A stretch of DNA of 64,000 nucleotides from positions 4,923-68,922 of the forward strand of contig JBBAEU010000003.1 in assembly GCA_041655765.1 (NCBI GenBank), given 5' to 3'. Both the position numbers and the translations under genes were made by a program. Source of the stretch: Brumimicrobium sp. Lineage in GTDB: Bacteria; Bacteroidota; Bacteroidia; Flavobacteriales_D; Crocinitomicaceae. The notes beneath the pieces are model-generated. The model did no database searches, had not been told where the DNA came from, and worked only from the letters and a program-made list of their open reading frames with translations. This document shows positions 20,131 through 26,161 of this stretch, one piece after another. Numbering within the stretch: the first letter of the stretch is position 1; each line of letters starts with the position of its first letter.

Positions 20131-21939
20131 CTATAATTCCTGTAATTCCACCATTCTTTTAAACTTTTCAGAACTTTTATACAGCTCTTCAAAGCTTCCT
20201 TCACCAATTACCTCTCCTTTGTCCATCATATATACTTTGTCTGCATTTCTAATGGTAGAAAGTCTATGGGCAATGATTAAAATGGTGTAATCTCCTTTAA
20301 TTTGGTCAATATTTGTTTGGATTTCCTTTTCTGTTTCAGAATCCAAGGCCGAAGTCGCTTCGTCTAATATAAGAATATCAATGTCTTTAAACAATTCCCT
20401 TGCAATGGATACACGTTGTTTTTGCCCTCCACTTAAGTTTACTCCATTGTTACCTAATAAAGTTTCTCCTTGTTGGGGAAGTTCCGAAATATACTGCAAG
20501 AGTGAGGCCTGTTGTAAGGCATTCTCGTAGCGTAGAATATTTTCTTGTGTTGGTGCTGCCCAAAGGGTGATGTTATTGTATATCGTATCATTAAAAATCA
20601 CGGGCTCTTGGGTAATATACCCTATTCTTGATTGATAAGTATCCATGTTTAATTCCTTAAAAGGGATATTATCAATAAAAACTTCTCCTTTGTTTGGCCT
20701 TAACAAGCCTCCTAATAAATTAACTAGGGTAGTCTTTCCACTTCCACTTTCTCCAACAAAAGCAATGGTTTTGTTTTTGGGAATCGTTAAGTTTAATTGT
20801 TTTAAAATACCATCAACTTCTTTATAACCAAAGTCTATGTTTTCAACTTTAATTTCCTTTTCGAATCGACTAATGGCAACCTCTCCTCTGATTTCGATGT
20901 TGTTTTTAAGTTCTTGTTCAAAATCGATAATGTTCTCCAAAGATCCTGAAACGGAGAGGTAATTATTGTAGCTGTCTTGAAAAATCATTAAGGCTGATAA
21001 AGCACGGTAAAAGAACAATAAACTAATCATAATACTGGCCAATTGTCCACCCAAAAACTCTACTTGAATAAGAATAACAATACAGACGATTCCAATTAAA
21101 ATTGGCTCCCTTAAAGCACTAATTTTGGCTCCTAAAAATCCAATTTGAGTGTTGTTTCCTTCTACATCTTTAATTTTCTCTTTTAGGCGTTGCGCATAGC
21201 TTTTAATAAACCCCGTAGCCTTTAAATATTTAAAGTTCGCTATATATTGGATGATTAAACCTTGAAAACCGCTGTTATTCTTTGATAATGCAACAGATTG
21301 TTCTTTGGTTTTTTTAAATAAACGACTAAAAAACAAATTAGACAAACCTCCTCCTACGCAAACCAAGAGCGCAAACTTCCAATCCACTAAAAACACAAAA
21401 CTAAGGTAAACCATTACCATAATAAGGTTTTGTACACTACTTGCAAAATAGCTATAAGCATTTGACACACGTGCTACTTCACCTGTCATGGCATTTTGTA
21501 TTCTTCCTACATCTGAACTTACAAAGCTTCGAAAGGAATAACGTGTAAAAAGATCGGTGAGCTTTATCCGCATTGAAGAAACAAAAAACTGTAAGATTCT
21601 AACATTAAATTTTAGAGAGGCATAATAAACAATCCCTTTGAGTGTAAAAAAACCAAACATGAAGAGTAATGCTGTTTTGATATTCAATTCGATGCCTAGG
21701 TTTACTATTCCATCTACTATAAAACTCATACTTCCCATTTCCTCACTGGAAACTCCTGAACTCCCGTCCGCCATCTGTAGCAATGGTAAAAACATCGCTA
21801 ATCCTAAACCATCAAGTACACCGATTAGAATACTTAAGCCTAACATAATGAAGATACGATTCTTCAAATAGGAATAGAAGTAACTAAAAGAAGAAAAATA
21901 CTTTTTAATAAAATTTTTAATGGTATTCATTATAGCCAA
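20131..21939 (-). CDS. ABC transporter TMD-NBD fusion, MsbA/PglK-like glycan flippase
   Basis: About 6 TM helices; GESGSGKT, LSGGQKQR, LILDEATSALD, IAHRLST. Confidence 0.92.
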   Translation of the reverse strand: MAIMNTIKNFIKKYFSSFSYFYSYLKNRIFIMLGLSILIGVLDGLGLAMFLPLLQMADGSSGVSSEEMGSMSFIVDGIVNLGIELNIKTALLFMFGFFTLKGIVYYASLKFNVRILQFFVSSMRIKLTDLFTRYSFRSFVSSDVGRIQNAMTGEVARVSNAYSYFASSVQNLIMVMVYLSFVFLVDWKFALLVCVGGGLSNLFFSRLFKKTKEQSVALSKNNSGFQGLIIQYIANFKYLKATGFIKSYAQRLKEKIKDVEGNNTQIGFLGAKISALREPILIGIVCIVILIQVEFLGGQLASIMISLLFFYRALSALMIFQDSYNNYLSVSGSLENIIDFEQELKNNIEIRGEVAISRFEKEIKVENIDFGYKEVDGILKQLNLTIPKNKTIAFVGESGSGKTTLVNLLGGLLRPNKGEVFIDNIPFKELNMDTYQSRIGYITQEPVIFNDTIYNNITLWAAPTQENILRYENALQQASLLQYISELPQQGETLLGNNGVNLSGGQKQRVSIARELFKDIDILILDEATSALDSETEKEIQTNIDQIKGDYTILIIAHRLSTIRNADKVYMMDKGEVIGEGSFEELYKSSEKFKRMVELQEL

Positions 21940-21952
21940 GTAAAATCAGTTG

Positions 21953-21960
21953 CGAAAGTA
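21953..21960 (-). promoter_or_regulatory. -7-like box for the glycan operon
   Basis: TACTTTCG on the minus strand, 13 nt upstream of the ABC gene. Confidence 0.45.
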
Positions 21961-22010
21961 ATGATTTTTTTACTATCTTAATGATAAGACAATTAACAAT
22001 TCTAAATCAA

Positions 22011-22298
22011 ATGCAGTATTACACCTATATCCTATTATGCAGTGATGACTCCTATTATGTAGGAGTTACCAATAACATTGAACGTCGTTTTGTTGAACAT
22101 ACTAACGGAGAAAACTCAACCTCCTACACCTACTCTCGTCGTCCATTAAAACTCGTTTATTTCGAAAGCTCGAAATATATAATTAACGCCATTGCTAGAG
22201 AGAAGCAACTCAAAGGTTGGACACGAAAGAAGAAGGAAGCTTTGATTAACGGGTGGGAAGGGGAGCTAAAAGAGTTAGCGAAGAAGAAGTTTGGATGA
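22011..22298 (+). CDS. Small stand-alone GIY-YIG nuclease (UPF0213/YhbQ-like)
   Basis: YTYILLC..YYVGVTNNIERRFVEH...RRPLKLVYFE...AIAREKQLKGWTRKKK; GIY/YIG tyrosines, Arg, His and Glu retained. Track start is 21981. Confidence 0.92.
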   Translation: MQYYTYILLCSDDSYYVGVTNNIERRFVEHTNGENSTSYTYSRRPLKLVYFESSKYIINAIAREKQLKGWTRKKKEALINGWEGELKELAKKKFG

Positions 22299-22312
22299 TA
22301 CGCTTTTGCCCG

Positions 22313-22360
22313 CCTTCGGTACATTTTTATGCTAAAGCATAAAAACACTCAGTCTGACAA
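22313..22360 (-). repeat. 48-bp REP-like element, inverted copy R1
   Basis: Minus strand reads TTGTCAGACTGAGTG-TTTTTATGC TTTA GCATAAAAA-TGTACCGAAGG; same arms as the forward copies. Confidence 0.9.
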
Positions 22361-22392
22361 AAGCTTGGAAGATCTGTATTCTTTTATAAATA

Positions 22393-22409
22393 TTCGGTAC
22401 ATTTTTATG
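22393..22409 (-). repeat. Truncated extra copy of R1
   Basis: TTCGGTACATTTTTATG is identical to 22315-22331. Confidence 0.8.
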
Positions 22410-22410
22410 G

Positions 22411-22622
22411 TTGTCAGACTGAGTGGTTTTCGACCCCAGGAGGAAACTGTACCGAAGGCTGACTACACTACGTAAATGCCACTCCATTTTCCTTGTCAGA
22501 CTGAGTGGTTTCCGACCCCAGACGGAAACTGTATCGAAGGCTGACTACACTACGTAAATGCCACTCCATTTTCCTTGTCAGACTGAGTGGTTTCCGACCC
22601 CAGACGGAAACTGTATCGAAGG
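22411..22622 (+). repeat. Three direct copies of the 48-bp REP-like element at 82-bp period
   Basis: Copies at 22411-22458, 22493-22540 and 22575-22622; F2 equals F3 and F1 differs at 4 positions; two identical 34-bp spacers. Confidence 0.95.
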
Positions 22623-22671
22623 CGGCAAGGAAAATTCTCCCGAAGGCTGACGCTTTTTCATCCTTTTTCCT

Positions 22672-22679
22672 TACTTTTG
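22672..22679 (+). promoter_or_regulatory. -7 promoter box for the adhesin gene
   Basis: TACTTTTG, 23 nt before the ATG at 22703. Confidence 0.5.
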
Positions 22680-22702
22680 ATTGAAAATTTTTCTACTTGA
22701 TT

Positions 22703-25700
22703 ATGGTGAATTTAAAACCAACTATTTTTTCGTTCTTACTTTGCCTTACAAGTACTTTATCCTTCGCTCAAGGATTGCTCGTATATCCAAAAGACAGTGC
22801 TGTTTTTGATGTTACAGAAATTCAATTTGAATGGAACAGTAAAAATGGGGCAAACGACTATCACTTACAAATAGCTGATGACCCCACTTTTACAAACCTC
22901 ATTGTAAACAATAGCAACTTAACTTCACTTTCCTATTTAGCACAAAACTTAAATCCCAATTCTGTTTATTATTGGAGAGTAAAACCCAACAATTTTTCTT
23001 GGTCTTCTATTTATTCTTTTACAATTGTAGACTTCAGAACTTGGCCGGAATTGGAGTTTATGCTCGACCCCGACAACGTGGTGCTAGACGCTAACGGAAA
23101 GGTAGAACAATGGACGGACTTAAGTGGAAATGGGCATCATTTTGGGCAAAATACAGAAAGTAATAGACCTAGTATTGGTATGGGAGAGGGAGTTAATCAA
23201 CAGAAAGTTATTAATTTTGAACCTAATTTAAATAATAATCTCTCGGGAGGAGATTTATCTAATCTAAGTGCAGGGGAAATTTTTGCATTTACTAAAAAAA
23301 ATAACGCAGTCCCATTACAAAATTCCTACTCTGGTATTTGGAGATTTGGTTCATCTGCTGATATTGAGTTTTATCCATATACGTCAGGTCATGCTAATTT
23401 AGCTTTTGGTAGAAGTTTACGCACTCCCATATTAGATATTAATGATCTTTTTAATCTCAAATCCCCTCATCTCCTAAATATAAGTTCACAAGATCTATTT
23501 AAAGTAAATATCAACAATACAAATATATTGACTAGTGGAACAGGAATAGTATCTTTCCCCTCTTCAACCAATATAGGAAAATCAAATGGAAATTATTATT
23601 TTGATGGTCAATTCGGACAAATTCTTCTTTTTAATACGGTTCTAAGTGACTCTTTAAGAAATCTTGTTTATGGTCAAATGCAATCTAAATACGCACCACC
23701 AGTAAACCTCGGTCACAACATATCGTATCAATACGGTTTTTGTAAAGACACCACCCTCTACGCTGGCAAACGCTTCACCTCCTATCTCTGGTCAGATGGT
23801 TCTACTGCAGATAGTCTTGTTGTTTCCGAACCTGGCACCTACTGGGTAGAAGTAGAAGACATCTTCGGTTTCATTTCTCGCGACACAATAGAAGTCGTTT
23901 CAGGTTTAAACTACCCCACCACCCAACTCTACTGCCAAAACGATTCCATAATTTGGCAAACAGGTTTAGGTCAACAATACTCCTACCTCTGGTCTGACGG
24001 TTCCACTGCCGATACTTTAGTCATCAATTCTCCAGGGAGTTACCATGTTACGGTCACCGACACCAATGGTTGTGTGTTTAAGTCTGACACTTTAAGTTTT
24101 CAAGAAGATTTATTCCCCACTTCTGCCACACTTGGTCCCGACCTTAATCTGTGTTCTGGAAACACGCTTTCGCTATCGACTGGTGCTTCGGAAGCAGTCT
24201 CCTACCTTTGGAATACGGGTTCTACAGATGCTTCAATTGTGATAGTAAACACGGGAGAATATAGCGTGGAAGTTGTCAACATAAACGGCTGTGTAGCAAA
24301 AGATACAGTACAAGTCAACATCATTGGTTCGGCTCCTAATATTGCTTTCTCCGTTCCTGAAACCATCTGTTTAAATGCCGAAGCAACATTCCAAGATATG
24401 AGTATCCCTACCGATGGCGCTACGATAAACGATTGGGAATGGGTGATATTGTCTGATACCATAACAAACAACATTGGAACTTGGCAGGCTGATAGCGTGG
24501 GTGTTTTTGATATTCAATACACCATCGGTACCACTTCGGGATGTTTTTCCGATACCACTTTTTCTATAACGGTAAGACCTTTACCAATTGTTTCCATGCA
24601 AACACAGGGTGTTTGTCAAGATGATGAAATACAATTTTATGCTGGTCAATTGACACCAACCTTTATTGATACTTGGGAATGGAACTATGGTGATGTGGCA
24701 AGTGGTGCAGAAAACACATCATTTTTACAAAATTCCACGCATAAATTCTCAATGTCTGGTGCGTATGATATCACATTAATAGGAACTGATATTTATGGTT
24801 GTGCTGATACCATAACAGAAGTGTTTTTTGTTCAGCCAAAACCTATTGCCAACTTTATAGGATTGGATATTTGTGCAGGAAATGTTGTTGATTTTGAAAA
24901 TACATCCACAATCGAAGTTGGAGGAACAATTGCAACCTACCAATGGGATTTTGGTGATGGAAATTATTCAGGCCAAACCAGTCCTAATAAGCCGTATGTT
25001 ACGCATGGAGATTACATGGTGAGTTTGGTCGCTATTTCAAATATGGGCTGTTCAGATACGACAAGTCGAATGGTGAAAGTACACGCTTTGCCACAAGTTG
25101 ATTATGTTGTTGAGCAAGCCTGTGCAAAAACAGCCACACGTCTAATTGACAACTCTTTTGTGCCAAATGGAAGTGTTGCCCTTGTAGATTGGTCGGTTAA
25201 CAACGCACCGCCTTTAACTGGATTTGTGGTAGAAAAAAACTTCCCGATTGGTGGAACATATAATTTAAAGCAAACCGTAAAATCGGCATTTGGCTGTAAT
25301 AACTCTTTAGAAACAACCTTCCAGATTTATAATGAAATAAGGGCTGATTTTGTTCATTTACCTACTGTTTTTGTTGCAAACGAGCCTGTTCAATTCCATA
25401 GTACAAGCATTGGCGCAAATAGTTATTTCTGGAAATTCGGAGATTTTGCTACTTCAACCCAAACAGATACGACAATTGTCTTTACGGAAAATCAAATTGG
25501 GGAGGAAATTGAGATTTCACTTACCGTTTCAAATAATTATGATTGTGTTGACTCAATAAGCCTTTCCAATGCTGTTATTGGTCGTGATACTGACTTAGCA
25601 TTAACACAAATTTTCTTGTCGGAAGACGATGGATTTACGACAATTGGTGTACGTATGGAAAATAATGGTTCTACACCCATAGAAAACGTAGAGTTTGCCA

Positions 25701-26161
25701 TTTCAGAAGCAGGAAAAGGTACTTTTAAAGAAATTTGGAGTGGATTTTTAGCAGGTGGAGAAAGTATTATCCACGTGTTAAGCTCACAACATACGACGGG
25801 TATTCCAGAAATGCAAAAAGAGCATCATTTCTTTTGTGTTAAAGGTCGATTACTCAACAGCCTTTTCGAAGAAGAAAACTTAGCCAATAACGAAGTTTGT
25901 TTATCCAAAACGGATGCAGATTTTGTTTTAATTCGCCCGTTCCCAAATCCAATAAACGACCTTATGACGGTACGCTTTATTGCAAATGTCAAAACTGAAA
26001 ATGATTTAGTTATATACGACGCACTCGGACAAGAAGTTTATCGTTATGATTCAGTTTCTTTAGAAGTTGGCATAACCGATATTGCAATAGACACTCAATC
26101 TTGGAGAACGGGTGTTTATGTTGTGAAATTTGGGATGAGTGAGGTGAATGTGGTAAAATAG
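22703..26161 (+). CDS. T9SS type A-sorted surface protein: Fn3-like + LamG/ConA-like + Ig/PKD repeats + CARDB-like + CTD
   Basis: Signal peptide; YHLQIADD...YYWRVK; VEQWTDLSGNGHH...GQILLFN; repeated YLWSDGST; PKD YQWDFGDG; RPFPNP...GVYVVK. Track start is 22697 (TTG). Confidence 0.85.
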   Translation: MVNLKPTIFSFLLCLTSTLSFAQGLLVYPKDSAVFDVTEIQFEWNSKNGANDYHLQIADDPTFTNLIVNNSNLTSLSYLAQNLNPNSVYYWRVKPNNFSWSSIYSFTIVDFRTWPELEFMLDPDNVVLDANGKVEQWTDLSGNGHHFGQNTESNRPSIGMGEGVNQQKVINFEPNLNNNLSGGDLSNLSAGEIFAFTKKNNAVPLQNSYSGIWRFGSSADIEFYPYTSGHANLAFGRSLRTPILDINDLFNLKSPHLLNISSQDLFKVNINNTNILTSGTGIVSFPSSTNIGKSNGNYYFDGQFGQILLFNTVLSDSLRNLVYGQMQSKYAPPVNLGHNISYQYGFCKDTTLYAGKRFTSYLWSDGSTADSLVVSEPGTYWVEVEDIFGFISRDTIEVVSGLNYPTTQLYCQNDSIIWQTGLGQQYSYLWSDGSTADTLVINSPGSYHVTVTDTNGCVFKSDTLSFQEDLFPTSATLGPDLNLCSGNTLSLSTGASEAVSYLWNTGSTDASIVIVNTGEYSVEVVNINGCVAKDTVQVNIIGSAPNIAFSVPETICLNAEATFQDMSIPTDGATINDWEWVILSDTITNNIGTWQADSVGVFDIQYTIGTTSGCFSDTTFSITVRPLPIVSMQTQGVCQDDEIQFYAGQLTPTFIDTWEWNYGDVASGAENTSFLQNSTHKFSMSGAYDITLIGTDIYGCADTITEVFFVQPKPIANFIGLDICAGNVVDFENTSTIEVGGTIATYQWDFGDGNYSGQTSPNKPYVTHGDYMVSLVAISNMGCSDTTSRMVKVHALPQVDYVVEQACAKTATRLIDNSFVPNGSVALVDWSVNNAPPLTGFVVEKNFPIGGTYNLKQTVKSAFGCNNSLETTFQIYNEIRADFVHLPTVFVANEPVQFHSTSIGANSYFWKFGDFATSTQTDTTIVFTENQIGEEIEISLTVSNNYDCVDSISLSNAVIGRDTDLALTQIFLSEDDGFTTIGVRMENNGSTPIENVEFAISEAGKGTFKEIWSGFLAGGESIIHVLSSQHTTGIPEMQKEHHFFCVKGRLLNSLFEEENLANNEVCLSKTDADFVLIRPFPNPINDLMTVRFIANVKTENDLVIYDALGQEVYRYDSVSLEVGITDIAIDTQSWRTGVYVVKFGMSEVNVVK

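Follow-up and report, generated by a model that had tools for sequence, protein, structure and literature searches.

The 64,000-nucleotide window analysed here (positions 4923-68922 of contig C3; Bacteroidota host genome of 2.6 Mb, 34% G+C) contains a gene for a single-domain GIY-YIG nuclease of 95 aa, followed by a cluster of hairpin repeats. The nuclease gene and the repeats constitute a genuine, general and evolutionarily conserved pair, not a chance association, and together they probably represent a cassette of the Ssn type, in which a minimal GIY-YIG nuclease gene is accompanied by hairpin repeats as the probable recognition sites of its product. Ssn proteins are single-domain GIY-YIG proteins of ∼94 aa whose genes are flanked by hairpin repeats, called NTS in Neisseria and, in general, Ssn-related motifs (SRM) (Chenal et al., Nat Commun 2025, PMC11893778). 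In the literature searched, nothing closer to the window cassette than Ssn/SRM was found.

Association of the repeats with GIY-YIG genes

Repeat copy number was compared in 40 relatives. The highest values corresponded to G002 (32 copies) and G014 (14 copies), the other congeners having three copies at most or none. The closest G002 homologue of the window protein is encoded inside a ten-copy cluster on contig C11, with six copies upstream and four downstream of the gene, in the order -,+,+,-,+,-, gene, -,-,+,+. Three near-identical repeat subtypes were found on at least 7 contigs of this genome, only one linked gene being present; such near-identical units probably break the assembly, so that 32 copies would be a lower bound. 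G003 showed a syntenic locus with a GIY-YIG gene and two repeat copies, and in G009 a more distant homologue was accompanied by copies 90 nt from the gene start, with half-sites on both sides. For its part, the genome under study contained 11 strong and 2 weak copies, all of them intergenic and mostly located just 3' of genes. As separate observations on G002, repeat clusters on contigs C5, C9, C66 and C59 (L039-L041 and L043) lay 0.1 to 2.4 kb from the contig starts, and the cluster at C5:80-425 adjoined the orthologue of the ABC transporter gene of the window.

The association extended well beyond the genus. A sample of 80 loci carrying the closest homologues (43-67% identity) was drawn from species-representative genomes of Bacteroidota, Pseudomonadota, Nitrospirota, Bacillota, candidate phyla and others. 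At 67% of the 49 loci of full length, the ±450-bp flanks were filled with repeated 11-mers, versus 3% of 98 control windows located 2.5 kb away at the same loci, while repeats common to both sides of the gene were observed at 69% of the homologue loci versus 1% of the controls. The covariance model of the window repeat yielded matches within a few hundred base pairs of the gene at seven Bacteroidota loci (L045, L052, L047, L044, L075, L076 and L063), and the repeats occupied both sides of the gene in G002, L045, L052 and L075. Thus, the coupling of gene and repeats put forward in an earlier reading made from the sequence alone was borne out by three congeners, by seven other Bacteroidota loci and by the enrichment in the flanks, a kind of test that this reading had suggested.

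A generic hairpin of the form nnnCTGAG..CGAAGn'n'n' adjoined 50 of the 80 homologue genes, with a density of 1.76 per kb near the gene, 0.15 further out and 0.037 in the genome under study as a whole. The same repeat plan was present in the flanks of homologues from distant phyla, for example TGTCACCCTGAGCGCAGCGAAGGGTC and TTGTCATGCTGAGC...GCGAAGCATC. When the plasmid homologues of Sphingomonas and Methylobacterium were examined for canonical SRMs, repeats of the CTGAG/CGAAG type were found instead. Other GIY-YIG subfamilies of the genus carry a variant of their own, such as AGCCTGAGGC.CTCGAAGGCT around the genes of G011 and G015, in which tip inserts are optional. The existence of a particular repeat variant for each protein subfamily argues for co-evolving enzyme-site pairs rather than for opportunistic insertion.

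Structure of the hairpin and relationship to the Ssn system

Alignment of the four window copies with the seven dispersed copies of the same genome, together with the 68-copy alignment described below, defined the repeat as an imperfect hairpin of ∼66 nt with the plan (TT)GTCA-nn-CTGAG-TG-[variable hairpin]-TGTAY-CGAAG-n'n'-TGAC(AA), in which a basal helix of ∼11 bp is followed by a small bulge and then by a nested tip hairpin. The sequence-only reading had described a 48-bp palindromic element; the palindrome is present, while the unit is better described as this longer nested hairpin. The nn/n'n' positions covary among the copies (GA/GC or TC, TA/TG, TG/CA, TC/GA and GT/AC), and the pair preceding the CTGAG core alternates between T-A and C-G. 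The sequence of the tip hairpin varies freely with its pairing kept, and the tip is a module that is absent from some copies in L044, L075 and L076; these short forms fit the removable or extendable loop published for the Ssn hairpin. A covariance-model alignment of 68 copies from this and other genomes gave 93.8% of paired cells (shuffles, 82.1%; partners slid by 1 to 3 columns, 35-59%) and two-sided changes in 11 of the 17 pairs, all of these values being biased towards the structure because the alignment was fitted to it.

Within CTGAG/CGAAG, the G-A opposite A-G would likely make a tandem G·A step. A K-turn or sarcin-ricin internal loop was dropped in favour of a continuous helix containing this step, which is backed by the covariation. 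A ribozyme was also considered, since CTGAG...CGAAG recalls the hammerhead CUGAUGA...GAAA, and was rejected because the required residues are missing and Rfam yielded no match; in window positions 21000-24000, Rfam 15 produced no meaningful match at E values of up to 10.

The window cluster consists of one inverted copy (R1), one truncated copy, three direct copies (F1 to F3) and a terminal half-site (Table 1). The sequence-only reading had listed the 95-aa gene with its inverted, truncated and three direct copies, and all of these are in place. The arms of R1 (22312-22360, inverted-repeat pair I1) begin 14 nt past the GIY-YIG stop codon, and its apex hairpin (TTTTTATGC/GCATAAAAA) is unlike that of F1, F2 and F3. 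The latter are direct copies with a period of 82 bp, F3 departing from the others past the core; the 52-nt core of F2, when folded as single-stranded DNA (ssDNA), gave -9.0 kcal/mol (z -2.2). The ending CGAAGG-CGG(G)CAA, which had been pointed out as a 3' extension common to R1 and F3, was confirmed and makes up the 3' side of an alternative outer stem, opposite 5' TTG(T)C. The box GTCAGACTGAGTG occurs four times in the window versus 0.67 expected, and the box TGTAYCGAAGGC four times versus 0.20 expected; in neither case did any shuffle reach four. The strand layout resembles that of BIMEs, with short imperfect intergenic palindromes in both orientations (one minus and three plus in the window).

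The biochemistry of the Ssn enzymes has been described. Binding to the hairpin is restricted to ssDNA and to one of the strands, and the cut falls a few nucleotides upstream; double-stranded DNA (dsDNA) and RNA are no substrates, RNA is not bound, and the hairpin loop can be deleted or extended (PMC11893778). In Neisseria meningitidis, the system reduces transformation by repeat-bearing DNA, and its authors liken the NTS-ssnA-NTS arrangement to REP/RAYT (PMC11893778). What is published for this family is thus the cutting of ssDNA, on one strand and beside the hairpin, rather than mobilization of the repeats.

The window cassette shares many of these traits. Like SsnA of N. meningitidis, its protein has ∼94-95 aa and a single GIY-YIG domain, and its gene is accompanied by oriented hairpins, copies devoid of a gene being dispersed, clustered and intergenic. 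In both systems a 5' GTCA tag adjoins the stem, the loop can be dispensed with or lengthened, clusters occur near surface-protein genes, and the organization is REP/RAYT-like without a Y1 transposase. The systems differ in that the window repeat is longer (∼66 versus ∼28 nt) and AT-rich, its CTGAG/CGAAG core being combined with a bulge and with a variable hairpin nested at the tip; in the base that follows the closing stem, which is G here and a critical C in NTS; in the protein subclade; and in the host, here a member of the Bacteroidota. The sequence-only reading had proposed a candidate non-RAYT repeat-mobilising system, and a nuclease-repeat pair independent of RAYT is indeed present; the same architecture is already in print (PMC11893778), so the idea is not that of a new kind of system.

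As stand-ins for SsnA we used two GIY-YIG genes adjoining exact NTS repeats in metagenome contigs, which correspond to 2 of the 80 metagenome loci kept (L134-L213). The exact NTS consensus CGTCATTCCCGCGMAVGCGGGAATCYRG was itself common in metagenome contigs, at least 120 stretches being recorded under names that suggest soil, freshwater and marine origins. A maximum-likelihood tree of 87 small GIY-YIG proteins (102 columns), to be read as a guide only, separated the UPF0213 proteins BH0048 and EF2693 and the tRNA-linked paralogue from contig C2 of the genome under study, on one side, from the window protein and the NTS-linked proteins, on the other (88/90). The window protein fell inside a 99/93 clade that includes the NTS-linked proteins, but in another subclade; the NTS-linked pair was nested in a 100/100 clade whose remaining members are flanked by CTGAG/CGAAG hairpins.

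Several observations weigh against the assignment to the Ssn type. The published SRM consensus, HGTCWYN(0-2)YYVSBRHN(0-5)WNVSBRGN(0-2)RNCYNB (PMC11893778), had no match anywhere in the 2.6-Mb genome and matched the 80 homologue loci only 4 times; what the window repeats have in common with SRM is limited to the GTCA tag and an overall plan of tag, stem and free loop. The window protein was ∼37% identical to the two NTS-adjacent homologues (E values of 1.6e-9 and 3.5e-9 in a small database), scored about equally against UPF0213 proteins of the PDB, and would probably fail the published criterion for Ssn homologues, which requires a tblastn match to N. meningitidis SsnA with E < 1e-10 and refers to clade cd10448 (PMC11893778). 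The tree has few columns, and the support of its separating branch (88/90) is moderate. In the window, the repeats are restricted to one side of the GIY-YIG gene, downstream of it. Finally, none of the 14 copies of G014 (e.g., L036, 4713-4838) lies beside a GIY-YIG gene, although this genome has five GIY-YIG matches, the best homologue showing 51% identity to the window protein; the repeats of G014 may be orphans or may be served by an unlinked enzyme. The window cassette is therefore filed as a variant of the Ssn kind, one whose class of hairpin and subclade of protein are not covered by the working definitions in print.

By analogy with the characterized enzymes, the window protein would bind the hairpin only in single-stranded, folded DNA, such as arises in replication, in conjugative or transforming DNA entry, or in repair. 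Recognition would depend on the 5' GTCA tag and on the lower stem with its G·A step, whatever the tip, and the nick would fall in the tagged strand, a few nucleotides upstream. A possible role, in line with the proposal made for Neisseria, would be to restrict how often incoming ssDNA recombines near the adjacent surface-protein and glycan genes; the position of the cassette beside a surface-protein gene and a glycan cluster parallels the Neisseria clusters around surface-protein genes.

Ssn proteins are the only known site-specific nucleases exclusive to ssDNA and are under development as ssDNA tools, and each further enzyme-hairpin pair could bring a new specificity. The window cassette offers a well-defined Bacteroidota pair with a recognition structure that would be unlike those published, given its predicted basal helix with G·A step and a tip open to arbitrary inserts. 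Since the CTGAG/CGAAG class is found with related nucleases in many phyla and escapes the published pattern, reports so far probably underestimate how widespread the Ssn family and its repeats are. The meaning of the cassette for the biology of the host organism is modest.

Presence or absence of the cassette and alternative explanations

The cassette behaves as a single block of presence or absence. In the congener G001 (L278), the orthologues of the ABC transporter and adhesin genes are 115 bp apart, and the 686-bp block that holds the GIY-YIG gene and all the repeats is replaced by 29 bp. The flanks align at 21887-21967 (65 of 81 positions identical) and 22654-22698, and the right edge falls at 22653/22654, directly past the last half-site. 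The block is either an insertion here or a deletion in G001, and the comparison with relatives that the sequence-only reading had recommended did reveal a site from which the whole cassette is missing. In G003, on the contrary, the cassette is present with 92% identity (window 21915-22830 versus contig C1 of G003, L033). Over its first ∼200 bp, the surface-protein gene is 94% identical between the two genomes, compared with 56-80% for the adjacent ABC-transporter gene and 73-76% for an unrelated housekeeping locus, which suggests recent exchange or gene conversion of the stretch, or unusually strong constraint. The position orthologous to R1 carries a different tip hairpin in G003, indicative of turnover of the units. 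Taken together, the presence/absence of the 686-bp block and its high interspecies identity make this a concrete place for asking whether such cassettes move.

Movement is the essence of one alternative, a selfish mobile element in which the GIY-YIG nuclease would play the part that RAYT has for REP, copying or moving both the repeats and the cassette that encodes it, and the dispersed copies would be non-autonomous derivatives. The idea was also raised by the Ssn authors (PMC11893778), and it finds support in the patchy copy number among congeners (0 to 32), in the near-identical G002 subtypes scattered over at least 7 contigs with a single linked gene, in the indel of the whole cassette with respect to G001, in the different tip of G003, and in a cassette identity between G003 and the genome under study (G000) above that of the neighbouring genes (about 75%). 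We nevertheless consider it unlikely. Neither a target-site duplication nor defined ends were seen, strand-transfer activity is not known for a 95-aa nuclease, and local tandem copies can be explained by slippage. The dispersed copies of the genome under study differ mutually by about 30%, which argues against a recent burst, and they gave no clean empty sites in relatives that are only 70-80% identical; the copy between eno and pgk was compared with 8 congeners, which are not syntenic there, and no clean empty site was found. Still less credence is given to a broader proposal, according to which the CTGAG/CGAAG hairpins and their GIY-YIG subclade constitute a separate branch of hairpin-directed ssDNA nucleases that spans many phyla and goes unnoticed by the published SRM definition; in its boldest form, the nuclease itself is what spreads the repeats and the ∼0.7-kb cassette. 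If true, this boldest form would imply a mobility mechanism beyond the DDE, HUH, serine and tyrosine enzyme classes.

The order of events could also be the reverse, the repeats being there first and the GIY-YIG gene using them as its landing site and inserting among them, in the manner of a homing-type selfish gene. The gene does lie inside clusters that look pre-existing in G002 and L045, gene-less clusters are more numerous than gene-bearing ones, and the G014 repeats have no linked gene. The window protein resembles the free-standing GIY-YIG homing endonucleases (phage T4 Seg, I-TevI) in its catalytic domain and in the selfish-gene-like presence/absence of its gene. However, those enzymes exceed 200 aa, more than twice its size, possess separate DNA-binding domains and act on long asymmetric sites in dsDNA, whereas the window protein is a catalytic domain alone, with 95 aa and no DNA-binding domain; it scored 16 bits against the NCBIfam group I intron endonuclease model, whose cut-off is 56. 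The variants specific to each subfamily, such as those around the G011 and G015 genes, point instead to co-evolving pairs, and a homing origin is very improbable.

An even slimmer chance corresponds to the repeats being RNA-level elements (stabilizers of 3' untranslated regions, terminators or small RNA), with their adjacency to a nuclease gene devoid of functional meaning. Such a role would be in agreement with the structure kept through covariation, with the dispersed copies, of which five out of seven lie 19-137 nt downstream of a same-strand gene, and with the C35 copy, since a hairpin resembling a terminator, with a T-run, comes after it. It would not account for the linkage to one protein family in more than ten phyla; moreover, the clusters combine both orientations head to head, Rfam gave no match even at an E value of 10, and the characterized Ssn enzymes bind no RNA (PMC11893778).

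The remaining possibility, an ordinary REP/BIME set driven by a RAYT and adjacent to the GIY-YIG gene by coincidence, can be regarded as effectively refuted. The repeats resemble REP/BIME elements and the REPINs associated with RAYT in being short, imperfect, intergenic palindromes, often just 3' of genes and in alternating orientation, with one linked enzyme gene amid the repeats and a patchy copy number among relatives; they differ in that the enzyme is a GIY-YIG protein instead of a Y1 transposase and the tag is TGTCA instead of GTAG. One Y1 transposase is encoded by the genome (C1:189099-189440, PF01797, E value of 8e-22). This sole PF01797 match lies on another contig, in accordance with the absence of HUH/RAYT transposases from the window that the sequence-only reading had reported, and the palindromes around the gene belong to another family, GAACTCCTACGGAGTTC. 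The same reading had named as a finding that would speak against its proposal a RAYT bordered elsewhere in the genome by the window repeats; the search for it gave a negative result. In addition, no PF01797 match was detected in G002, the genome with the most copies, and only a sub-threshold match was detected in G014, while adjacency to GIY-YIG genes recurs in many genomes. RAYT is not involved with the window repeats. In the stretch C1:188700-189500 (L001), outside the window, the Y1 gene is followed by several copies of GAACTCCTACGGAGTTC and by CCTCGAACGAAGKTCRGAAACC units, and this gene and its palindromes would seem to be a REP/RAYT-type pair of their own.

Features of the locus and the nuclease gene

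The features of the locus are collected in Table 1. The 757-bp spacer between the two divergent neighbours, an ABC transporter gene and a surface-protein gene, holds the GIY-YIG gene and all the repeats.

Table 1. Positions of the cassette, its components and the neighbouring genes in the window
Feature	Positions	Strand	Details
Whole cassette (gene and all repeats)	21968-22653	.	686 bp, from the alignment with congener G001 (L278)
Ssn-like single-domain GIY-YIG nuclease gene	22011-22298	+	95 aa; Pfam PF01541
R1, full inverted hairpin copy	22300-22365	-	Covariance model 67.2 bits, E 1.5e-16
Truncated copy, 17 nt, from the 3' arm of an inverted unit	22393-22409	-	Exact repeat of 22315-22331, family D2
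F1, full hairpin	22406-22471	+	Covariance model 76.5 bits, E 2.7e-19; first of tandem family D1
F2, full hairpin	22488-22553	+	Covariance model 74.4 bits; 95% identity to F1
F3, full hairpin	22570-22635	+	Covariance model 69.5 bits; alternative outer stem CCTTG(T)C / G(G)CAAGG
Terminal 3' half-site CCGAAGGCTGAC	22640-22651	+	Right end of the cassette; read from the sequence
ABC transporter gene	20131-21939	-	Neighbour, divergent
PKD / type IX secretion (T9SS) sorting-domain surface protein gene	22697-26161	+	Neighbour, called adhesin

The GIY-YIG protein matched Pfam PF01541 over residues 2-75 with an E value of 9.6e-18, no other Pfam domain being present, and an alternative ATG at 21981 would extend it to 105 aa. 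By eye, Y6, Y16, R25/R26, H30 and E64 occupy the GIY, YIG, Arg, His and Glu positions, respectively. The fold of the protein was taken as established from its PDB sequence matches, BH0048 (E value of 7e-11) and EF2693 (E value of 2e-10), both belonging to UPF0213. The proteins of this group (B. halodurans BH0048, PDB 1ZG2; E. faecalis EF2693, PDB 1YWL; E. coli YhbQ type) are like the window protein in size and fold class, but the latter stands apart in the tree, where the UPF0213 proteins group with the tRNA-linked GIY-YIG protein of contig C2. We know of no described repeat partner for UPF0213 proteins.

The genome has two small GIY-YIG genes, that of the window and the one located after a tRNA gene on contig C2. 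The CTGAG/CGAAG repeat of the window is absent beside this second gene, which lies outside the window (C2:1-610) and encodes a protein of 82 aa that is UPF0213-like in the tree. The tRNA directly before it was identified by eye as tRNA-Leu, and the region upstream of the gene contains a duplication of ∼170 bp in which the 5' half of the tRNA is joined to a TCCCG...CGGGA hairpin.

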